Below, piece by piece: positions 3,481-25,478 of a DNA stretch of 25,591 nucleotides. How positions within the stretch are numbered: position 1 is the first letter of the stretch; every line of letters starts with the position of its first letter. The stretch is from the IMG/VR virus record IMGVR_UViG_3300011334_000532, positions 1-25,591 of that record. One strand, given 5' to 3'. A program made the position numbers and the translations under genes. The notes below the pieces were generated by a model. It had not been told where the DNA came from and searched no databases. It saw nothing but the letters and a program-made list of their open reading frames with translations. This stretch comes from a virus. Taxonomy: Duplodnaviria; Caudoviricetes.

Positions 3481-6400
3481 TTAAAGCCTCCAGAGCTTTG
3501 ACCTTTGTTGACAATTCTTGAATGGCTTTAATCATCGGAGAGATAAATTCTTCATACGCAAGAGACAGATGAGAGTCGGGGTCTTCAAGATTGTCAATGA
3601 TGAAACCTCCGAAGTCTGGAGCGTTCAGCTCATCAAGTGTCTGCTTGACTTCTTGGGCGATAAGTCCCCAATGTCGACGAACACCTGGACGAGAGATTGT
3701 GCTCGTCTTTCCTTCTTCATCCAAAAGAATTTCACCATCTTCATCTCTTACGAATTCATTGCCACCCACGATGAACTTGTATGAGACCGGGCGCAGGGCA
3801 TCAATAAACTCAAGACCTAGGGAGGCGTCTTCAATTTCCTTTTTTGTTCTAATGTCTGAAGTGGAAATTGTCGAGGTCGCTGCCCAAAGTCTTGTCCAAC
3901 GAAAAGCTGATCCACCCAGTTGTCGATCGTTATCGTTGTACGGATAACAGTTTGAGATCCATCCTGCCGTTGTAGTTGATACGAATCCAACAGCATTGAG
4001 CGAGACTCCCTGGCTTGAGTAAGGATTTACTCTGAGGAATGCAAAGTCAGAAGATCCTCCAACTTGTACAAAGTAACTCGAACTCGTTAGAGACAGCGAA
4101 GATGCCGTGATGGTACCGGCAGAAATTTTGTCGGCCGAAAGTGAGCCAGTTGTAATCTTTCCGCCGTCGATAGTTGTGGAAAATGAGTTGATGTCTGCGG
4201 CAGCGCTGCCAGGTGAGAGCTTTGAATTCGCTGTTGTCTGCGCGTTAGTGGCGGCAGTGTTTGCAGCCGTTGCAGTTGTTGAAGCATTGCTCGCGGTTGT
4301 GGAAGCGTTGTTCGCGGTCGTCTGAGCTGTTGAAGCGGCTGAGTTGGCCGCATCAACTGCGGCTTGTGTTGCGTATCCGCCGATCGAAACTGCACCAGTT
4401 GATGCGTTCAAGAAGAAGGTTGCGTTGCCACTGGAGTTGTAGGCACCAAGTCCAGAGCTATCCATCTGCACTCGAGCCGGACCGGCAGAGGTTCGAATTG
4501 TCGATCCTGTTATGGTCTTGCCGTCAATCGCTGTGCCGCTAATCTTCGCAGCTGTAATGGCTCCGGCTTCGATTTTGTCGGCAGTGATTGCGTTAGCCGC
4601 AATCTTTCCAGCATCAATGGCCAGCGCCTGGATTAGTCCACCTGTGATGGTGTTTCCGATGATTGCATCTGAAGCGGTGATCGTCCCAGATGCAATCTTT
4701 GCTCCGCTGATTACTTTACCGATGACGTCGGTTTCGACCAAGGCGGTCCCTTTGGATGTTACCTGTGCTGATGCCGTTGATGCGACTCCGCTCGTCGAGT
4801 ATCCGACGAGTTTGAAGTAGTAATCAACTCCATAAGGAAGAGATGTCAATACAAAAGTGTCTGCGCCGTTTAAGCGTCCCACGATTGTCGAGGCGACTGG
4901 AGTGAAGTTGTTGGTCGTCGATGCGTGGACGTTCACGTATGAAAAATTCGCAGGCATTGATCCGCCGAGATTGCTCAGACCATCCCAAGTGATTGAGACA
5001 GTTCCCAACCGCGAGGAAACTGTTGGGGTGCTCGGCGTTGTGCTGAAAGTTGTTTGAGTCGGTGTGGTCAGATTGAAAATGCCTGAGTCGACAGATTTGT
5101 TGTTAAATGCATCAACAGCGGTAACTTTGAACTGAAAACTTTTGAGAGGCTCAAGTCCGCTCAACGTCGCCGATGGATTAGATACGACTCCAGCAAATTC
5201 CCATTCATCATCTGAAGATCTACGAAGACTGACTTCGTATCCTCCAAGATCGATTAGGGGAGAGCCATCTTCGTTCAATGTTGGTGCAGTCCAGGTCAAT
5301 AGGACTCGAGCTCTTGGGTTTGATCCTTCAAGATATGAGCTCGATGTGCCAGCAAGTGCAGTCGGCGCAGCTGGAGCAATACTATCTGGAGTCATTTCGA
5401 CGACAGGAGTCGAGGTTGGCTGGGATCCGTTGCCGATGTTGACTGATCCTGATGTGATTGCAGCAAGGCGTCGGGTCTGACGAATTTCATTTTCGTAAAT
5501 ACGATCGCCCAAGGTTGCGGTTGCGGTGAGATTTCCGCCGCTCATCGTGATTGTTACCTGGCGAACTCGGACTTTTTCGAGACCTGATCTAGTGGAGGTG
5601 AAGACATAATCGCCAACCGTAAAATCTTTGAGAGGTTGAGGAGCTCCATCTTGCATGGTCAACCCAACTGTCAGCTGACGCTTAGGGGTTGCAACGTTGC
5701 TCAAGTAGTTGTCTGAGAGCTCGTTGATGACAACTGGATCATTAATTCCAGAGGCTGTGAAGCTAGTTTCGAGGCGACCAAAAGTGGCAAGAGTTGAGCT
5801 GTTGCTACGTTCGAGAATTTGACCTTCATCAGCTTCGACAAGTGCGACAGCTGCAAGCTTGTCGACGTTGATCTCTTCTGGAGCTTGGGTGAGGTTGAAG
5901 CCATCGCGCAAAATGATTGGATTGGCCGTGATTGTTAGATCAGAGCCGATGCCATCTGGGCGCGTAGCTTTGAGAGATCTTGCGTTCATCTGGACTTCGA
6001 CAAGACCGAGCTCTGCAAGCTGTCTGATCACTGCAAGAATTGACTGACGAGCTTGGTACTCGGCGTCTGTTGTGTCTGCCCACGTCATCGAATTCGAATC
6101 GGTGGCATTGGTAAAGGTGTAACCGATTCCAGACAAGGCTCCGCGATTCTTTGCATCATCGATCAGAGTTTTGAGAATCGTGCCAGCTGTTGCCGTTTCA
6201 AAGGTGCGCTTTACTTCACCGGATAAGACTCCGCCATCTGGATAAGCCAGAGCTGTATCAAAGCGCCACAAGAGCGAGCGAGCGCTGACCGTGATCGTGC
6301 CAGTTGAGGCAAGGCGATCGCGGTTGATGTTGCTGATGACATAACGTGCATTTGAAAACTCTGTGCCTGTTTCGTTGGTGATTGCGATTTCGCGCATGAC

Positions 6401-14228: not shown

Positions 14229-14264
14229 TAGACATGTAAGGGAAACCGATTGAAGGGAAAGAAG

Positions 14265-14603
14265 ATGGAAATCTTAGAAGGAAAGCATTTCGAATTTATG
14301 CGTGAATGTAACGCTCAAGGGTTGATTTCACAGATCGGAAAAATGAACGTTTTTGCGATCTCTGGTGGTCGCGTCGAGGTTCGCAAGACTGGTGTCACTT
14401 TGCCAGTGAGCAACGGTTATTCGGTCATGATCGATTTAGCTTGGGACGATACCTACACAGTTCGAAGAATGTTCAAGCGTGGGGGAAAGATGTTCATCAA
14501 GGGATCAGTCGAAGGCGTGTATTGCGAAAATATCGGAGAGGTTGCATATCAAGCTTCTTGCTTTAGATCCAACGAAGAGTTCGGAGAGAGGTTATCAGCA
14601 TGA
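14265..14603 (+). CDS. Hypothetical phage protein (112 aa), first gene of the inverted cassette
   Basis: ATG 14265 after purine-rich AAGGGAAAG; globular composition; ATGA-coupled to the next gene. Confidence 0.8.
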   Translation: MEILEGKHFEFMRECNAQGLISQIGKMNVFAISGGRVEVRKTGVTLPVSNGYSVMIDLAWDDTYTVRRMFKRGGKMFIKGSVEGVYCENIGEVAYQASCFRSNEEFGERLSA

Positions 14604-14740
14604 AAACTTTAGTCAGCATCGTTTCAAAGGAATCTCAAGAAGAGTTCGCAAGAGCTGAATTGAGTGCGACAAGAATCAAAGCTTTGATCAAGGCTTACGA
14701 AAAGGCTGGAATTCCAGTAGAGATGAAGGTGGCAGCATGA
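14600..14740 (+). CDS. 46-aa protein missing from the ORF track (MKTLVSIVSKESQEEFARAELSATRIKALIKAYEKAGIPVEMKVAA)
   Basis: GAGG SD; ATGA overlaps at both ends fill the gap exactly. Confidence 0.8.
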   Translation: MKTLVSIVSKESQEEFARAELSATRIKALIKAYEKAGIPVEMKVAA

Positions 14741-14961
14741 TCGAGATGAGAGAATGCGAATTGTGCAATGGCACAACTCGCGGCGATACTTGCTTCAAAG
14801 CTGTTGTTTGTCCAAGCTGTAAAGCAGCCCCAGGAAAATCTTGCATGAGACCTTCCGGGCATAGAGCTTCTGAAATTCACTCCGAGAGAATCAAAGCTGC
14901 TCAAGCTATTGATGACGCAGCTGGATTCAACTGGCGAGAAGCTTACGGAGTAAGCGCATGA
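14737..14961 (+). CDS. Small zinc-finger protein
   Basis: CELC...C...CPSCKAAPGKSC...H..R, resembling actinophage CPxCxAxxGxxC...H..R zinc fingers. Confidence 0.75.
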   Translation: MIEMRECELCNGTTRGDTCFKAVVCPSCKAAPGKSCMRPSGHRASEIHSERIKAAQAIDDAAGFNWREAYGVSA

Positions 14962-15209
14962 TTCCTCAAAGTATGAAAGGAAGTGGAATGAATAAAGTCA
15001 ACGTTTATGAGAGAATGTTGTCGTCGGTTGTTCCCAGTGAATGGGTCAGCCAGGGCAAGGGGAAGAAGCACTGGATTCATATCAGCGGAGTCCAAGTGAA
15101 ATATGATCACAATCGATGGGCTTGGCAAGTAATCGGCGGCGCAAAGTGCGGTTTATTTTTCGAGACCAAGTGGAGTGCTCAGACTGAAGGGACGAGGCAT
15201 CTTGGCTAA
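14958..15209 (+). CDS. Hypothetical protein, Trp-rich (alternative start ATG 14988)
   Basis: ATGA overlap with the upstream gene; fills the cassette. Confidence 0.65.
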   Translation: MIPQSMKGSGMNKVNVYERMLSSVVPSEWVSQGKGKKHWIHISGVQVKYDHNRWAWQVIGGAKCGLFFETKWSAQTEGTRHLG

Positions 15210-15372
15210 TACGAAGCAGCGAGCAATCAGAGTCGATGACGATCTCTGGGAAGCGGCAAAAGAGCGGGCCGAGCTAGAGCAGCGGACCGTCTCCGACATT
15301 GTCAGAATCGCACTGACGCAATATGCAGAGAATCGATATGATGCAATCGAAAGAAGAAGGGTCAAAAAATGA
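15202..15372 (+). CDS. Ribbon-helix-helix (CopG/Arc-like) DNA-binding protein
   Basis: Start re-called at TTG 15202 after GAGG; TKQRAIRV-DDDLWEAAKERAELE-QRTVSDIVRIALTQY is a classic RHH pattern. Confidence 0.85.
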   Translation: MANTKQRAIRVDDDLWEAAKERAELEQRTVSDIVRIALTQYAENRYDAIERRRVKK

Positions 15373-15572
15373 GCACGAAATATTTCACTTGGGATCTTCC
15401 AGAGCCAAAGGCTCTTTTGCGTGTCTCAGATTCTGGTCATGAGCTTTTCGATGGCTCTACCTGGGGCCCAACCGGGTTGGTGCTCGAATATTTCGCCGGT
15501 GAACGTCATGACATTGATCCGATCACCGAGGTTGAAGCGCGATCAGAGTTTGTCTTAGCTTTTAAGAATTAG
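15369..15572 (+). CDS. Candidate immunity protein for the RSH-type toxin domain (IapK-like, 67 aa)
   Basis: Small and acidic; KY...LLR...E.FD...W...D..ITE.EA matches my recollection of Apk2 immunity proteins; adjacent to the toxin locus. Confidence 0.6.
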   Translation: MSTKYFTWDLPEPKALLRVSDSGHELFDGSTWGPTGLVLEYFAGERHDIDPITEVEARSEFVLAFKN

Positions 15573-15856
15573 AAAACAGCATCCTCGGGAAGATTTTGAT
15601 CCCATAGAGCTTCAATATCAGGGAAATTTTCAAAAGTTGCAGATGGATAGAGTCTTGCCAGGATCAGCGCAGTCGCTTCACTAGAGCTGACCTCAGCTGG
15701 GAGAGTTGGTCCAGTTGGCGTGACGAGCACTCCATCATTTTGAAACAGCTCACGCAAAACTTCGACAATAACAGCTCCAGATCCTTCAAGGTAGGGCGAA
15801 GCATTAGACCAGGACACTGTCCAGTCTTGCGCTTTAGCTGTCCAATTAGAGGACAC
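15569..15856 (-). CDS. Small acidic protein coupled to the MuF gene; candidate immunity protein/partner of the zincin domain
   Basis: Start overlaps the end of the MuF gene; VTPTGP motif; acidic C-terminus. Confidence 0.6.
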   Translation of the reverse strand: MSSNWTAKAQDWTVSWSNASPYLEGSGAVIVEVLRELFQNDGVLVTPTGPTLPAEVSSSEATALILARLYPSATFENFPDIEALWDQNLPEDAVF

Positions 15857-18671
15857 TCAACACCCCAATCAAGAAGTCTCGGAAATCGTCGTCCAAGTCT
15901 ACTGCACCGCCACCAAAGTATTTCGATCCGGCCAGAAGTGATTCGATTCCAGTTGTGAAAACTTCCCAGGATCCTTCTGGACTTCCTTCGTAGACTTTTC
16001 CAGTGTAAGGGGTGGTCCAAGCGTCAAAGACTGATTTTTCGGTCCTGCGATAACCGCTTCCAAGCCATTTTTCAGGCTCGAATTGGTCGCCCTTTGGCGT
16101 AGTAATTAAAGCTCGGCGGGAGTGGAATGCCCATTCCATCTCACTGAGACCAGGGACGGTCTTTTCCATTGAGTGGCCTAGTTCGTGGACAGCGACAGCA
16201 AAGTAGCCCTTGTCATCAACGACACCAGTCTCAAAGTGTTGCGACAGTCTGATTTCATTTCCACCGCGATTGTATCCGCGACCTGAAGAGCCGATTGAAA
16301 TTTCATCATATTGCGCGTTCACAGTATCGATCCAGTCGCGAGGAAATGAATCATCTGCGAATTTCATTGCATCGGCTAATTCATCAGAGACAGCTCCGCC
16401 ACGAGCTCCAACGTAAGAAGTGACTCTTCCATCCATTGAACGAACTTCGGATAGAAGCTTGAGGGTCTCTTCTCGTTGAATAGTGCCGAAAAGTTTTGTT
16501 CCCGGCACAATCTCGCCGGAAATCTCTTTGACCTGCTTGACGGTTGTCTTGAGATTCTTTGTCACCAAGAAAATGTCTTTGTCTATTTTTGCCACTGCCG
16601 GATCGATTCGACTGTAAAGATTGGTCTGAATGTCGATCCAACTGAGGCGAGAATCTTCGTCGCTGAAGCTTCTGACTCGTGACTCTGTTTCAAAATTCCT
16701 TCGAATTCTAAGCCGCTCGACGTTTCTCTTTTCCGTTAATTCTTCAAGAGTTTTTTCGAGCTTCTTCTGAGCTTTGATTGCATCATTGATCTCATCGATA
16801 TTTCGACCAAGGGATTCAGCCTCGATTCTTGCAGCGATTCTCAGATCAAGCTCAACTCTGAGAGCTTTTCCTGCCTCGAGAATTTCGTCGAGATGGGCGC
16901 TTGCTTCTGCGCCAACTCTTTGTTTCATTTTTCCTCGTCCGGCACGAATGTAGTCGCCGGCATCAATCTCGCCTCGTCTTAGAAGGTCGAATTTCTTCTG
17001 AGTTCTGAATGAATTTCCCCAGATTTCCCGAGCCTCAGGGACTGTGCCGTACTGATTGACTGTTGGTGTGATTCCGGTTGTCTTTTCGAATTCCTTGAAA
17101 AGTGCCTGCTTGACAATCTCATCATTTTTCGAGGTGGCAATTTTGAGATCTTTTTCCCAACGCTCAACGAAATCTTGCGCCTTCTTTGCTTCGGCAAGCT
17201 CCGTGAGCTCGACCGGAGTCAGATCTCTTCCACCCCTGCGACCGATCCGAGACCGATCCGCCGGAAGTCTCTTCTTAGCATCATCGAATTTTTGTCTCCA
17301 GGGAGCAACTGGCTTCGGCGCAGCTGCGGCACTTCTTGAGCCAACTGTTTCGATGCCTTTAGGGACTGGAATTTTTTTGGCAGCTGCAAAGCTCTGGCGA
17401 TCGTATTCAGCAAGCTTGAGCGGATTCTTCTCTTTACGTGCGAGCTCATAGATTGAGTGAAGTTCGCCCTCTTTTACCTCAAGAGACTTGCCAGTGTGTA
17501 GCTGAAGCTCGAATTGGGTGCCATCGGGAGCGGTGACTTGGATATTGATTCCCTGGTAAGGGTTATCGTCGACATTCCAATAGTTTTTGACCTTGAGTGT
17601 GTGACCTGATTCTTCAAGCTCATCGATGATGGCTTGTGCTCCGGATACGTATTCATCATCTGGCAGCTGCATCGTGTAACGATTGACGTCGAACATTTTT
17701 CCGCCGACTTCTTCAGCGGTGACGAGGCCCTTGCCCTCTTCGACGTCTTTGAGAATTTTTCGGGTGAGAGAATCTTCGCCCTTGAGTCGATATTCAAGAC
17801 CTTTGAGTTCGGCGTTGTTTTTAGCTGCAAGAGTTTCCATCTGATCGGTAAGAGCTGGCTCGATCTTTCGGGCCTTTTCGACCAGGTCACTTGCAACAGC
17901 TCGCGCCGAATTGATCGGCGTTGGTTGGACTTTGATGTCGTAGTAATTTCGCCAGGCTTTGACAGCTGCGTTGTTACCATCTCCACCGGCGAACTTGCCT
18001 GAGATATTTTCATCGTAAGCGCGGCGAAATTCTTCAGCTCGACCAGGCCAGGGAGCACTTGCATCAAAGACAGGGACAGCGGTGCATCCGCAACCATCAT
18101 GAGACTTGAATTTTGAAGTGCCTTCAGATTTGTAAGCCGGTCCTCGAGATGCCAGGAGAGCGCAGAATGCGCAAGGCTTGCCATCTGTAAGTCGAGCCCA
18201 TCCGATCGCGTACCTGTCTCGAGCTACTGACTTCCGAACAGTCTCGCGTCCGCCATCAATGGTGTGACGTTGTGCAGCTTTTGAAACTCCCTTGAGAGCT
18301 GACTGTTTTGCAATCAATGGATCCACGCCAGCCGCAAGATTCTTCTTCATTGCAATCGGTCCGGTGACAAGGAGAGAGGTGAATACCTTGTCGACGTCTG
18401 GGACTGAATCCAAGACCGGAGTGAATAGATCTCCGAGATCGTAATCTTTGCGGATGCCAGAGTAGAAGGCAGATCCAAGAGCTGAGCTCATGGTGCGTCG
18501 AGCTGTGATCGATGAATAGGCAGACTCAAAGAATGGCCCAAAGCTTCTGTCAATATTGTTGACGTCAAGCAGTGGGAAAGCCTTTGCCATGTCCTGGACT
18601 GCGAGAGCTTGAAGCTTTGCCTGAGCTAAGCGATGAGACTCTGCAAGTCTTGCCTGTTCAACGAATCCCAT
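15846..18671 (-). CDS. MuF-type minor head protein fused to an Apk2/Tas1-like RelA/SpoT synthetase domain and a C-terminal HExxH metallopeptidase
   Basis: Directly after the portal. N-terminal WAR...CAFCALLASRG..Y...HDGCGC..VP (MuF); then GLEYRLK..SL.RK, D..RYT, KNYW, YQGIN, FELQLHT, H.IYE (RSH synthetase); coiled coil; AVHELGHSME...EVFTTG.E (zincin). Confidence 0.85.
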   Translation of the reverse strand: MGFVEQARLAESHRLAQAKLQALAVQDMAKAFPLLDVNNIDRSFGPFFESAYSSITARRTMSSALGSAFYSGIRKDYDLGDLFTPVLDSVPDVDKVFTSLLVTGPIAMKKNLAAGVDPLIAKQSALKGVSKAAQRHTIDGGRETVRKSVARDRYAIGWARLTDGKPCAFCALLASRGPAYKSEGTSKFKSHDGCGCTAVPVFDASAPWPGRAEEFRRAYDENISGKFAGGDGNNAAVKAWRNYYDIKVQPTPINSARAVASDLVEKARKIEPALTDQMETLAAKNNAELKGLEYRLKGEDSLTRKILKDVEEGKGLVTAEEVGGKMFDVNRYTMQLPDDEYVSGAQAIIDELEESGHTLKVKNYWNVDDNPYQGINIQVTAPDGTQFELQLHTGKSLEVKEGELHSIYELARKEKNPLKLAEYDRQSFAAAKKIPVPKGIETVGSRSAAAAPKPVAPWRQKFDDAKKRLPADRSRIGRRGGRDLTPVELTELAEAKKAQDFVERWEKDLKIATSKNDEIVKQALFKEFEKTTGITPTVNQYGTVPEAREIWGNSFRTQKKFDLLRRGEIDAGDYIRAGRGKMKQRVGAEASAHLDEILEAGKALRVELDLRIAARIEAESLGRNIDEINDAIKAQKKLEKTLEELTEKRNVERLRIRRNFETESRVRSFSDEDSRLSWIDIQTNLYSRIDPAVAKIDKDIFLVTKNLKTTVKQVKEISGEIVPGTKLFGTIQREETLKLLSEVRSMDGRVTSYVGARGGAVSDELADAMKFADDSFPRDWIDTVNAQYDEISIGSSGRGYNRGGNEIRLSQHFETGVVDDKGYFAVAVHELGHSMEKTVPGLSEMEWAFHSRRALITTPKGDQFEPEKWLGSGYRRTEKSVFDAWTTPYTGKVYEGSPEGSWEVFTTGIESLLAGSKYFGGGAVDLDDDFRDFLIGVLSVL

Positions 18672-18674
18672 GGA

Positions 18675-20027
18675 CTACGCCTGAGGAGTCGTGATTGCCT
18701 GCGGCGTATTCTGTCGCTGTATGTCGCCCAGAAGAGCGCCGAAGACGTCTCCTTGTGTGCGAAGTGTCTTCCAACGTTCGACGTCTTGATCTGTGACCCC
18801 TGGAATTCTTTCCCAAGCTGCTTCAGCTGGGACTCCGAGCATCTGGACCATCTTTCCGAGTGCATCGACAGTCTGAGCAAGAGAACGCGCTTCAGTATCG
18901 CGCCAACGAACTTCTGAAGATTCATCTTGAGCAGAAGCTACGTCTCCGTCAGCTGCGGCAGCTAGGCGAAGCACCTGCTCCCAGCTCTCGCCGAAGATTG
19001 TTTCGTACTCACCAATCTTGCGCTGAGTCGAAGCTTCTGCCGCTGCAAGTGCATCAGCTGAAAGGTTGACCAAGTCGCCGAGAAGTACGTGAGGGGGAGT
19101 CTGTGCAACAGCTGCCATCGAGCGAACTGTTGAAGCATAAGTTTCCAAGTGTCCTGAGACTTCTGTCTGATCGAAATCTCCGAATTTTGCATCTGGTGAA
19201 TCTGTCACCCAAAGACGATCGACAGCTGACTTGAATGGTTCAATCGGCTTGCCATCTTCGGCGACAGGGATCGCAAGACCGGTCGCCCAGCGCTGACGGA
19301 AAGATGCGTATTGAAGCGCGATCATCAATGAGAAGACGCTTTCGTTGACGCGATCCTGAATCGTCATCAGAGGAAAGATGATTCCCTTTGAATTGTCTGA
19401 AAGAGAGCTTCGGAATCGCACGAGTGGAGTGACTCCGAGGTTGTGCGATTCAGTGAGTAAAAGTTGAGGCTTGTCGGAATCTTTTCCGATGCGAAGTGTG
19501 TAGGCGGCTTCATTGTCGTAAAGGCGCCAAAGTTTTCCGGCTCCATCATTGCCAGATTCGACGAGTGCGTAGACAGGCCACTCATCATCTTGATCGGCAT
19601 AGAGAGCATGTGTGCGAGTTGGTGAGAGAGGACGGATCAGCGGTGATCGATCACCTGGTAGGACTAGGACATAGCTTGCGCCATATTCGAGAGCTCCGCG
19701 ATGAGTGATTGTCTGACGTGCATCAAGACCGTTGGCTTGCCAGTATGTCCAGGGAGCGGCGTTGTCGTATGCCTTCGCTGGTCGGTATCCATCAACGAAG
19801 AGTCCCTTTGCAAAGGTGTCGGCGATGAGTGGAAGCCAGTTGGTGATTGATCTCTGAGCGAGGTGTTTGTATTCGCTCTTCGCAGTCTTTGGCATGTAAG
19901 GGAAATCGTGATCTCCAGCCAGGTAGCGCTCGATCTTTCCAATACGGCCATCTCGAGACTTGAGATGCTTTTGATGCTCGATCATTTCAGCTGCGAGACT
20001 CTCAACAGCTGCGGTGGTCATTGCCAC
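18675..20027 (-). CDS. Portal protein (SPP1 gp6-like)
   Basis: Start re-called at GTG 20027 (or ATG 20021) after GAGGAG; YLAGDH, NWLPLI, WQANGLD, NLSADAL, FGESW, VRWRD. Confidence 0.93.
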   Translation of the reverse strand: MAMTTAAVESLAAEMIEHQKHLKSRDGRIGKIERYLAGDHDFPYMPKTAKSEYKHLAQRSITNWLPLIADTFAKGLFVDGYRPAKAYDNAAPWTYWQANGLDARQTITHRGALEYGASYVLVLPGDRSPLIRPLSPTRTHALYADQDDEWPVYALVESGNDGAGKLWRLYDNEAAYTLRIGKDSDKPQLLLTESHNLGVTPLVRFRSSLSDNSKGIIFPLMTIQDRVNESVFSLMIALQYASFRQRWATGLAIPVAEDGKPIEPFKSAVDRLWVTDSPDAKFGDFDQTEVSGHLETYASTVRSMAAVAQTPPHVLLGDLVNLSADALAAAEASTQRKIGEYETIFGESWEQVLRLAAAADGDVASAQDESSEVRWRDTEARSLAQTVDALGKMVQMLGVPAEAAWERIPGVTDQDVERWKTLRTQGDVFGALLGDIQRQNTPQAITTPQA

Positions 20028-22213: not shown

Positions 22214-22456
22214 CTACGAAAGAAGAAGCTTTGCTTCCTCAGCGCTTATTCCTAAGCGGTCAAGAATAACTTGACGCTGAGTGGCATTTAACTTTTTGGC
22301 TTGCTCTACCATCAAAGCCTCTTCCTCGATTTTGAGACGCAATTCTGCTCGTTGTGCAATTTCAATTTCAGTAAACTGGCGCTGAGTTAGTTCACCAGTT
22401 TCAACGTTATGTTCAAAGACGATATTTTCATTCATTGTCATTTTTTCCTCATTCAT
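22214..22456 (-). CDS. Small fibre-associated/chaperone-like protein
   Basis: HNVETGE...R..TE.EIA and ILDRLGISAEEAKLLL; follows a fibre-type gene. Confidence 0.7.
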   Translation of the reverse strand: MNEEKMTMNENIVFEHNVETGELTQRQFTEIEIAQRAELRLKIEEEALMVEQAKKLNATQRQVILDRLGISAEEAKLLLS

Positions 22457-23091
22457 TATTTAACTCCGTAAAGTGTGTAAGTTCCAGCAGTGAAAAATGG
22501 ACCACCCTGATTTATTGAGATTGAAGTTACGGCATTGTTGCTGAACCATCTGCTTTTCGTGTCCATTACGCCTGTGTAACTGTAATATTCGACTCCACCA
22601 AAACCACTTACGATTTTGTTTGCGGCTGTGTTTGTGTAATCGTGAATGATGAACTCTCTGGCAGTGTTATTAGCCGCCTGGGGTAAGTCGAATTCTCCAT
22701 AAGTCAAAGAAAGATAGGTCGTAGTCCAAGCACGCACTCTAGTTACATTAGCATCGGTTCCACCGTAAGTGTCATTCATTCCGATGTTTATGGTTTGAAA
22801 GTTTACATTTGTAACATCATTAAACTGAAGAGTCAGATTAGACTCTATATAAGCACCTTGTGCATTTTTTATAATCAAACGCAAGTCTTTGTAATTTTGA
22901 GAAATGTTTGTAAGTGAGACAGAACTGCCACTCAGTGTTCCAGTTGCTAGTTGCGTCATCGAGCCACCACCGCCGCCAGAGGGAGCCGGGTAGCCATTGG
23001 GGAAAGTCACTGCGCCGGATATGCCGTCAATGACAACCGATGGAGTCGCGAGGTTGGGATGCTGGCTGTTTCCTGTTTTTAGCGTGCTCAT
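22456..23091 (-). CDS. Putative receptor-binding/fibre-tip beta protein
   Basis: Gly linker, then MTQLATGTLSGSSVSLTNISQNYKDLRLII...TSISI...FTAGTYTLYGVK; Thr/Asn/Tyr-rich. Confidence 0.65.
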   Translation of the reverse strand: MSTLKTGNSQHPNLATPSVVIDGISGAVTFPNGYPAPSGGGGGSMTQLATGTLSGSSVSLTNISQNYKDLRLIIKNAQGAYIESNLTLQFNDVTNVNFQTINIGMNDTYGGTDANVTRVRAWTTTYLSLTYGEFDLPQAANNTAREFIIHDYTNTAANKIVSGFGGVEYYSYTGVMDTKSRWFSNNAVTSISINQGGPFFTAGTYTLYGVK

Positions 23092-23101
23092 GTGTTTTCC
23101 T

Positions 23102-23407
23102 TTATCCGATTAACCAAGTTGAACCACTTGGGATTGTTGAGATTGCACCATTTGAAATTGTTACGGGTCCCACACTGAAAGCGTTATATCCTTCGGGGAT
23201 TGAATAGTGGTTAGAGATTGTCTTGAGATTGAGTGCGGCTGGTTCAATGCTTCTAAAATATGAAAGTGCGGTCCATGTTGAGGAGCCATTACCAATTTTG
23301 ATTTTGCCGCTATCTAACTCAATGCCCATTTCGCCTTGAGCGAGAATTGGATTATTAGCGGTCCAGTTCGCAGATGAATCCCTACGAAATTGAATTTGTA
23401 TACTCAT
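23102..23407 (-). CDS. Protein with an Mtd-N/hyaluronidase-N-like fibre domain (101 aa)
   Basis: Start re-called at ATG 23407; IQFRRD....W...NPILAQGEMGIELDSGKIKIGNG..TW..L.Y; C-terminal SVGPVTI..G...TIPSGSTW. Confidence 0.8.
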   Translation of the reverse strand: MSIQIQFRRDSSANWTANNPILAQGEMGIELDSGKIKIGNGSSTWTALSYFRSIEPAALNLKTISNHYSIPEGYNAFSVGPVTISNGAISTIPSGSTWLIG

Positions 23408-23408
23408 T

Positions 23409-24212
23409 TTAGATGCTCGCTCCGCAATCGATAGTCGGGATTCCTGTGTAAACACTTGACGCATTGCCAGCGTCTAAATTTGCAATTCCAGTACCTGCGG
23501 GACCAGCTTCGCCGGTGTCTCCCTTTGGACCTTGTGCTCCAGGTGCTCCAGGTGCTCCTTGTGCTCCAGATGCACCGGCTTCGCCGGTGTCTCCCTTTGG
23601 ACCTTGTGCCCCAGGTGCTCCCGGTGCACCTTTTGGAATAAATAGATCCCATTCAGCTGAGTTGCCTACTGGGTTGCCGAGTCCGCCGCTTGACTTTGCG
23701 ATGTAGAGATTGTCATCGCTACCTTTTACGACTGCAAGGTTGGCGATGTATCCGTTGCCTGAAATGTATTGGCCGAGGTAGACAATGCCTGGACTTCCAG
23801 TCGCTCCGTCGTTTCCAGATGCACCAGCTTCGCCCTTATCTGCAATCGGTGTCCAAGATGCGTTGATAGCTCCAGGAGTTGGGGGATAGCCAGGATTCAG
23901 CGGATTGCCAGTTCGGACATAGGTGCCGCCCTGGTAGTAGACAGCTGCTCCGTATCCGTAGTCGGCTCCGTTGTTATATTCGCCGACGATTGTGAATGGA
24001 GCTGGACCAGGTGCGCCAGGTGCGCCATCGTTTCCAGGTGCGCCATCATTTCCAGCGTCGCCCTTGTCACCTTTGGGTCCAGGAATTCCAGCTGGGCCAG
24101 TTTCGCCCTGCGGACCGGGAATGCCCGGAGCAGACGCGAGCTCGTCGCGGACAGAGTTGATCTCTGTTGCGATCCGCGTTGCTAATTCATCGACTTTTTG
24201 TGACAGGGTCAT
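23409..24212 (-). CDS. Collagen-like fibre protein
   Basis: Three Gly-X-Y tracts separated by two small aromatic modules (G.Y......Y....V......Y.......P......W); ends in LDAG/IDCG motifs. Confidence 0.85.
   Translation of the reverse strand: MTLSQKVDELATRIATEINSVRDELASAPGIPGPQGETGPAGIPGPKGDKGDAGNDGAPGNDGAPGAPGPAPFTIVGEYNNGADYGYGAAVYYQGGTYVRTGNPLNPGYPPTPGAINASWTPIADKGEAGASGNDGATGSPGIVYLGQYISGNGYIANLAVVKGSDDNLYIAKSSGGLGNPVGNSAEWDLFIPKGAPGAPGAQGPKGDTGEAGASGAQGAPGAPGAQGPKGDTGEAGPAGTGIANLDAGNASSVYTGIPTIDCGASI
23506..23621. repeat. 44-bp direct repeat (1 mismatch, 72-bp period) in the collagen tract
   Basis: GCTTCGCCGGTGTCTCCCTTTGGACCTTGTGC(T/C)CCAGGTGCTCC at 23506-23549 and 23578-23621. Confidence 0.85.
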
Positions 24213-24215
24213 GGA

Positions 24216-24875
24216 TTATGCCAATCCAGCCTCGAAGGTAGTTGCGTAGTTTGTATTTGTATCGCCGACAGCTGTTGCCAAAGCGGTCAAAGCTGTGTTG
24301 CTTGCCTTTGAATCAAGAGCGTCTTGAAGATCGACAACCTGTGAGATCGGATGAGTGTGTCCAAGATCTGACTTGCCTGAAATCAGTCCGGTGATTGTTC
24401 CCGCGAAGTTAGCGTCATCGCCTAGAGCTGCGGCCAATTCGTTGAGTGTGTCAAGAGCGCCAGGAGCTAGTCCGACAACGTCATTGATTGCATCTGCAAT
24501 CTCTGTATTCACCTTGCTTGAAGACCAGACCTTCGTTGTTGAAATAGTTGCATCATCGATCAGAGCTAAGACCTGAGCTGATACGTCAAGAGAGTCGATC
24601 GCGCTCTGGATTGCATTCAGAGTGCCATTGATTGTCGTGATGTTGCCTTCGATTGTTGAAATGTCAGCGTCGTTGGAAGTCTTGTATCCGGTGAGCTCTG
24701 TTGAAAGAGATGTCAGGCCAGACTTGAGCTCGTTGAGCGAAGCTACAAGGTTGCCCTTTGCTGTTGTTGTTAAAGCTGAGAGATCTGCCGTGTTTCCATT
24801 GATCAAGGTACGGACTGCCTTGACTTCTGTCGCTACACGAGTGGCGAGATTTACTACGTTGGTTGATAGTGACAT
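24216..24875 (-). CDS. Coiled-coil fibre protein
   Basis: Likely start ATG 24875 (MSLSTN...); LTTTAKGNLVASLNEL, KVWSSSK, APGALDTLNELAAALGDDANFA and HTHPISQV..LQ..LD fibre motifs. Confidence 0.85.
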   Translation of the reverse strand: MSLSTNVVNLATRVATEVKAVRTLINGNTADLSALTTTAKGNLVASLNELKSGLTSLSTELTGYKTSNDADISTIEGNITTINGTLNAIQSAIDSLDVSAQVLALIDDATISTTKVWSSSKVNTEIADAINDVVGLAPGALDTLNELAAALGDDANFAGTITGLISGKSDLGHTHPISQVVDLQDALDSKASNTALTALATAVGDTNTNYATTFEAGLA

Positions 24876-24876
24876 T

Positions 24877-25128
24877 TCAGATGAGTCCATTCTCGAAGAG
24901 GATTTTTAGTGATGGGAGATCGTCGTAGGCCGGATGCGGAGTTGGGTCTGCGATGTGAGTGTTGACTAGCTGGCTTCCGAACTGGTCAAGCCAATCCTGT
25001 TGGGAGCCAACGAATCCGGCCGCAACCGCGATTTCGTAGGCTGAAGCTCCGGCTGGACCCTGGGGTCCCTCCAGGCCAACAATGATGATTTCAGATTCGA
25101 TGTCTTCTCGAATTACAACTTCGCTCAT
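24877..25128 (-). CDS. Small virion fibre/adaptor protein with a short collagen tract
   Basis: GPQGPAGASAYEIAV..GFVGS...WL and HI....PHP.Y motifs. Confidence 0.75.
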   Translation of the reverse strand: MSEVVIREDIESEIIIVGLEGPQGPAGASAYEIAVAAGFVGSQQDWLDQFGSQLVNTHIADPTPHPAYDDLPSLKILFENGLI

Positions 25129-25478
25129 CGTGTCACGCCTGCATCCACGCGGACCACGCCTTCGATAAGTCGCTTCTTCTTGGATTGAAGGTCGGTCAAG
25201 ACCAGGTCGTAGACGTATTTACCAACTGCCAAAGCTGAAGACTGAGATGAGGTGATCTCGACCTTTACGCGACCGGCTGAGCCCTCGATTGTGAGCCCTC
25301 CACCTGCCGCAGTTGTCAGCGAGATGAGCGCCGTGGCGTCAGCTGGCGTGCGTCGGATCTGCATTGCAGCTGAGTAGCCAGTGAGGTTGACTGCCGCGCC
25401 TGTTGACTTGGTCTCCCAGCGAAAAGCGGTTCGGAATGTTGAGAACTGATCAATGACGAGGTCCGTTGAAGCTGCCAT
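25125..25478 (-). CDS. Ig-like fibre-anchoring protein (BppU-N/LtfC-like beta sandwich)
   Basis: L.IDQ..TF...F.W, NLTGYSAAMQIR, YVYDLVL, RLIEG.V.V..GVTR; AAAGGAGG SD. Confidence 0.75.
   Translation of the reverse strand: MAASTDLVIDQFSTFRTAFRWETKSTGAAVNLTGYSAAMQIRRTPADATALISLTTAAGGGLTIEGSAGRVKVEITSSQSSALAVGKYVYDLVLTDLQSKKKRLIEGVVRVDAGVTR

Follow-up and report, generated by a model that had tools for sequence, protein, structure and literature searches.

The window analysed here, a 25.6-kb fragment (25,591 nucleotides) of a tailed phage (IMG/VR record IMGVR_UViG_3300011334_000532; CheckV completeness of the record, 54%), encodes a minor head protein of 941 amino acids (aa) (15846..18671, minus strand) in which a head-targeting domain of the MuF4 type is followed by an Apk2-like alarmone synthetase, a helical stalk and a C-terminal domain predicted to be a zinc protease. 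Both enzyme domains are present and their catalytic motifs are intact. With a probability of roughly 0.55, we read this protein as a double antibacterial effector that is likely packaged in the virion and injected, and whose tandem synthetase and putative protease likely each have a small antidote of their own. The candidate antidotes are a 95-aa protein (15569..15856, minus strand), whose open reading frame (ORF) is co-oriented with the head gene and overlaps it by 11 nt, and a 67-aa protein (15369..15572, plus strand). The stop codons of these two ORFs share a TTAG at 15569-15572 on opposite strands, as the first-pass annotation of this DNA had described.

Two enzyme domains in one head protein

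The 941-aa ORF is the first gene after the portal gene (18675..20027, minus strand; PF05133, E 3.6e-41) in the head module. It is a single unbroken frame, as had also been noted earlier, and the full frame recurs in an independent contig (L001/G001) and in protein P0001. In the former, the frame and both small genes are present at 92-96% identity, and synonymous codon changes outnumber non-synonymous ones in the synthetase (54:9), the C-terminal domain (48:9), the 95-aa ORF (20:8) and the 67-aa ORF (19:4). The two small ORFs therefore look like real genes, and every part of the locus is under purifying selection.

Residues 9-221 (18009..18647, minus strand) match VG15 (PF25310, E 1.5e-32) and not PF04233. 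The MuF4 seed of Jamet 2017 is gp4 of phage Angel (PMC5576092), and gp4 is itself a VG15 protein (E 4.5e-32; pairwise with the window protein, E 6e-10). The earlier label of MuF is thus correct in the superfamily sense, as VG15/MuF4. The C-terminal extension behind this domain varies among homologues, which may carry an ART domain, a synthetase only or a zincin only.

The synthetase occupies aa 251-447 (17331..17921, minus strand). Residues 262-443 match the solved Streptomyces alarmone synthetase SaEAS (8vx3) with E 1.6e-17, and the domain is 34-36% identical to Apk2-type phage proteins. All catalytic positions are kept (R295/K297, D328-RYT, Y372-GxN, E388-Q-LH and H405), which bears out the RSH-synthetase-like domain proposed at first pass. 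Of the three Apk signature motifs named in PMC12226406, RYT and GxN match and the third (syn4) reads LH, not YH. SaEAS, the closest solved relative, is bifunctional and makes both alarmones, so that either pppApp or ppGpp as a product would fit the homology. Unlike the Apk2 synthetases, which lie at the C-terminus, this one is followed by 494 aa. It probably acts as Apk2 does, though it is no canonical member of that group, and it is likely a toxic alarm-nucleotide maker. Pfam detected neither the synthetase nor the zincin in the window protein; in the relative P0007, the Pfam RelA_SpoT match is weak (E 0.0026). Elsewhere, a phage protein cut by a contig end (L137:2837-5389) carries at least two, and probably three, synthetase domains in tandem.

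The C-terminal domain (aa 718-941; 15849..16520, minus strand) contains an HELGH motif at 16173-16187, and a downstream Tyr and Glu ligand complete the residue set of a gluzincin. H829, E830, H833, Y894 and E903 are invariant in 30/30 aligned sequences and in 150/150 top profile matches. The conserved Tyr and Glu have a role in the PPEP and ATLF enzymes, which share this HExxH...Y...E set. Nearly all the top structural matches of the model of residues 718-941 (pLDDT 87) are zincins; the best are PPEP-1/2/3 and ATLF-type gluzincins (Z 7.4-7.7, root-mean-square deviation [rmsd] 3.8-4.1, 145-150 residues). These differ from the window zincin in being secreted enzymes with only 11-13% identity to it, a likeness that does not imply a substrate. 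The invariant residues and these modest fold matches agree with the HExxH protease-like domain of the earlier annotation. The family is large, with 2,293 clusters at E ≤ 1e-10, and the domain is C-terminal in 135 of the 150 top relatives. It occurs behind three MuF-type heads (VG15, PF06152 and PF04233), as an interchangeable tip.

Between the two enzymes lie a linker and helical stalk (aa 455-715; 16527..17309, minus strand; coiled coil by eye) that are common to relatives lacking the synthetase. Trees of the head, of the zincin and of the two jointly all group eight proteins in a single supported clade, and the synthetase is present in three of them: the window protein, its near-copy P0001 and P0007 (46% over the full length). 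The other five (P0002-P0006) align to residues 1 to about 250 and about 440 to 941, with nothing between, which makes the synthetase a clean internal indel. Single and repeated gains were not separable in the tree test (p-AU 0.30). Since P0007 is the only one of the 150 best zincin representatives to contain a synthetase, the combination is rare. The loci of the synthetase-less sister proteins P0002-P0006 were looked for and not found.

One partner gene for each domain

Neighbouring genes were counted within 1.5 kb at distinct zincin and synthetase loci whose downstream flank was 350 nt or longer (15 loci with shorter flanks were dropped), using flank hidden Markov models (HMMs) built without the window lineage and cut-offs of 14 and 10 bits; the 95-aa family was counted beside zincin and synthetase loci only. 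Members of the 95-aa family follow 42 of the 43 zincin-only loci among the matches listed and none of the 73 synthetase-only loci. Conversely, IapK-like genes follow 69/73 synthetase-only loci and 0/43 of those zincin-only loci. Linkage is therefore domain-specific, the 95-aa family going with the zincin and the IapK-like genes with the synthetase. Held-out zincin loci gave the same picture (95-aa family at 19/20, some of these loci being near-copies), and the double loci L001 and L003 carry both partner genes. At L003, a frameshift (2200-2335), either natural or an assembly error, splits the double-effector gene between synthetase and stalk, and this locus was taken out of the zincin-only count.

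The 95-aa protein has a TPTGP motif and a conserved C-terminal tail, and has no family match in Pfam, PHROG or NCBIfam. Neither it nor the 67-aa ORF has a significant match in annotated phages. Fold searches with its model reached at best Z 3.2, with none at E ≤ 0.001, which is not proof of a new fold. Modelled in complex with the zincin, it scored 0.77, compared with 0.00 for the best control; the score mark is reached by 116/157 solved complexes and 2/215 mismatched pairs, counts that are only approximate with the alignments used. Runs agreed in 100% of contacts, with a partner pLDDT of at least 87. The modelled tail (residues 92-95) pairs with the RGYN edge strand and makes contact with both H833 and Y894. 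Contacts to R798/G799 come from the TPTGP loop, and the interface spans the whole zinc site (H829, E830, H833, Y894 and E903). The model thus supports binding of the 95-aa protein to the zincin and makes it a candidate active-site inhibitor. In Bacillus phage vB_BboS-125 (MH884509), an unannotated ORF (L071:4279-4581) lies directly after a zincin gene annotated as MuF-ART; its weak match to the 95-aa family (17 bits) suggests that the pair reaches the phages of Bacillota.

The 67-aa ORF is an IapK/Tis1-like immunity candidate for the synthetase. Against an IapK HMM built without its lineage it gave E 4.7e-7, the best of 511 window ORFs (next, E 0.67); a first model made from close homologues alone had given E 0.035, as against this broader one. 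Aligned to the IapK-like family with hhalign, it reached 95% (E 3.3e-8), compared with 0.3% for the 95-aa family. The ORF is thus sequence-homologous to the small proteins adjacent to apk2. It has no direct Pfam match to Tis1, the link to which is an Atlas lead only, and no significant match among PDB sequences. In L189, a low-GC phage, an ORF (5587-5865, minus strand) convergent with the synthetase-tipped head gene looked IapK-like by eye, fell below the HMM threshold and was not counted. Downstream of other synthetase-tipped phage proteins, IapK-like domains form the N-terminus of proteins of 200-340 aa (L075:4689-5315, L169:5625-6290, L181 and L175).

The first-pass annotation had given each domain its own antidote. 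The pairing stands, as one partner tracks each domain in the linkage counts and the complex model supports the zincin/95-aa pair; the antidote action itself is predicted.

The 67-aa gene ends a counter-oriented, plus-strand cassette that separates the head gene from the scaffold gene. Its start overlaps the stop of a ribbon-helix-helix (RHH) regulator gene (ATGA; 15175..15372, plus strand; PF01402), upstream of which are further small ORFs (about 111, 46, 74 [Zn-finger] and 83 aa; 14250..15209, plus strand). In the distant phage L154, a synthetase-only head protein (synthetase 47% identical) is likewise followed by an opposite-strand pair of RHH (56%) and IapK-like genes, which argues that this orientation goes with the synthetase module and did not arise by chance in a single genome. 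It is not the usual arrangement: of the 69 IapK-like genes at synthetase-only loci, 68 are co-oriented and one is convergent. Since the 67-aa gene lies behind the RHH gene on the other strand, we infer that it is expressed independently of the late operon, and its product would be made in a lysogen or early after entry. A promoter scan found five weak sites, against an expectation of 1.8, and none of the five lay clearly ahead of the cassette.

The terminase, portal, scaffold, coat and tail genes of the window are all on the minus strand. Contig G001 (38 kb, rated complete) is 89% identical to the window in nucleotide sequence over 16.8 kb. The tyrosine integrase and WhiB that it encodes suggest a temperate phage, presumably with an actinobacterium as host; no integrase is present in the 54%-complete window record. 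The complete G001 has no HD hydrolase. Upstream of the terminase, the window differs from G001 in a region (22214-23091, minus strand) that contains an 80-aa and a 211-aa ORF, both low in GC (43-45%) and without a Pfam or PHROG match. Also upstream of the terminase, and separate from the main tail cluster, are Mtd_N, collagen and tail-repeat genes (23102-25478, minus strand).

Proposed action and its alternatives

If the protein is an injected double effector, its cycle might run as follows. The 95-aa gene would be co-translated with the head protein from the late operon, and its product, a plug for the zincin, would protect the producing cell, its tail (92-95) being predicted to follow the edge strand and enter the zinc site next to the TPTGP loop. 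By analogy with Apk2 and IapK, the synthetase would turn ATP/ADP into (p)ppApp and so drain ATP, and the 67-aa protein would occlude its acceptor site. Through its MuF4 domain the protein would be placed in the head in low copy number, free of the inhibitors, and would enter with the DNA; MuF proteins are present at 2-3 copies per head, according to PMC12226406. After injection, the freed domains may drain ATP and cut host protein, stalling a naive host, and cells making the IapK-like protein would be spared.

Several points weigh against this reading. PMC11699363 describes what MuF toxins do as an open question, BcTas1 is less toxic in full-length form than as the isolated domain (PMC10083569), and Iyer 2017 favours autoprocessing for such peptidases (PMC5512222). 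The best VIA Z score of the zincin (7.7; rmsd 3.8, 145 residues) is under the tool's mark of 8, and Foldseek against the PDB gave the domain no match at E ≤ 0.001 (best E 0.06); with fold scores under their marks, the zincin call draws mainly on residue conservation. A C-terminal tail in the modelled active site would fit a substrate equally well as an inhibitor. In the linkage counts, training of the models had drawn on 23 of the 43 zincin loci and on 28 IapK rows, the counted loci are related to each other, and the host ORF is 5'-truncated at the contig edge in 18/43 zincin-only loci. The linkage data do not extend to the neighbours of P0007, the sole distant double protein.

The autoprocessing view leads to the alternative that fares best, although we find it doubtful. 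Here the zincin would process its own polypeptide and free the synthetase (elsewhere an ART or Zeta domain) from MuF, the 95-aa protein would keep the zincin inactive until packaging, and the synthetase would be the sole toxin. Section 8 of Iyer 2017 proposes autoproteolysis for metallopeptidases (MPTases) of polyvalent proteins (PMC5512222). The zincin also stays constant while the internal effector varies (synthetase, ART in P0123, P0168 and the BboS-125 annotation, or Zeta), and it ends many proteins of 2-3 kaa. However, five of the eight close relatives consist of MuF, stalk and zincin and have no other recognised effector to release, and zincin-only loci retain the 95-aa partner. In addition, peptidases that release a toxin are usually found on its N-terminal side (PMC3482391), whereas the window zincin is terminal.

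It is less probable still, and in our view unlikely, that the injected synthetase briefly stalls the new host or its defences until an early phage IapK-like protein stops it, serving host takeover and not competition or lysogen immunity. Two distant phages have the RHH and IapK-like unit uncoupled from their late operon, which would suit such timing, as would the lack of an HD hydrolase in the complete G001, but the predominance of IapK-like genes co-oriented with the late operon (68/69) argues that separate expression is not generally needed. That the zincin is a head-maturation protease acting in assembly and the synthetase a hitch-hiking addiction module is very improbable: the 'head/capsid maturation protease' label of related genes speaks for it but falls on their VG15 part, and some relatives have an ART or synthetase alone at the tip and no zincin.

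We therefore prefer the double antibacterial effector. A more far-reaching version of it can be put forward only tentatively: the zincins would form a widespread phage protease-toxin family with a dedicated small inhibitor, its fold unmatched, that plugs the zinc site by its C-terminal tail; an Apk2 module would have been stacked inside, its antidote wired to a separately regulated RHH unit; and virions would act as two-warhead injectors to which lysogens are immune.

Relation to known systems and significance

As in MuF polymorphic toxins, the window protein has a MuF-superfamily N-terminus, a post-portal position, a variable C-terminus and a small downstream ORF that the linkage and the model mark as immunity-like. 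It resembles the Apk2-IapK-Aph1 MuF toxins (PMC10083569 and PMC12226406) in its MuF-family head after the portal, its synthetase with RYT and GxN, and its small IapK/Tis1-like partner. It differs from them in several ways: its synthetase is internal where theirs is terminal, its head domain is of the MuF4/VG15 type, and its immunity gene lies behind an RHH gene on the other strand. Moreover, a second enzyme domain has a partner of its own, and the complete close relative has no aph1. In the MuF metallopeptidase (ATLF) toxins of Jamet 2017, too, a MuF domain, which can be MuF4, precedes a C-terminal zinc metallopeptidase, and a small ORF lies downstream. The window zincin shares only fold likeness with these, having no match to Pfam ATLF even at E 10, and the accessible text of Jamet 2017 describes no partner family or inhibitor mode for them. 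There (PMC5576092), MuF-RelA and MuF-metallopeptidase toxins are catalogued apart; 13/13 RelA_SpoT rows have no peptidase, and ATLF rows exist.

The window protein also joins at least two disparate enzymatic domains in a virion-linked polypeptide, as do the polyvalent proteins of Iyer 2017 (PMC5512222), which combine an MPTase, of one of 12 clades, with other enzymes and include RelA/SpoT and MuF fusions. Dedicated inhibitors for each domain do not appear in the available text of that paper, the supplements of which may list the architecture of the window. Bxa, with Bsi and BAH (PMC11699363), is another MuF toxin with two immunity genes; both of these act on one ART domain, whereas the window partners each track a different domain. 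Other MuF proteins carry two effectors: ART and zincin (P0123 and P0168 among 46 scanned, and BboS-125 by annotation), synthetase and Zeta (L198), or Zeta and zincin (L064 and P0169). In L198 (3747-9440) and L193, the order is MuF, synthetase, Zeta, Zeta in a protein of 1897 aa, and no IapK-like gene was detected within the 1-kb flank.

In a literature search that covered subscription papers thinly, we found no account of a MuF-synthetase-metallopeptidase protein, the 95-aa family or a counter-oriented immunity unit. The first-pass annotation had named no earlier description of the architecture. To the extent of this search, that holds for the exact combination, but novelty was overstated, since MuF metallopeptidase toxins and MuF-RelA fusions have been published (PMC5576092 and PMC5512222) and two-effector MuF proteins recur. 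What is newest is the pairing of the zincin with its candidate inhibitor, along with the separate orientation of the immunity gene.

The locus draws attention to a large family of phage metalloproteases and, with it, to a family of candidate inhibitors for which Pfam, PHROG, NCBIfam and the fold searches gave no match. It also shows that an internal insertion can enlarge a MuF toxin while the old tip and its partner are retained. Partner genes that differ in orientation, and likely in timing, would provide a built-in way to separate protection of the producer from immunity in the lysogen or early in infection. If true, the two-warhead reading would allow a direct test of whether MuF toxins serve kin discrimination.

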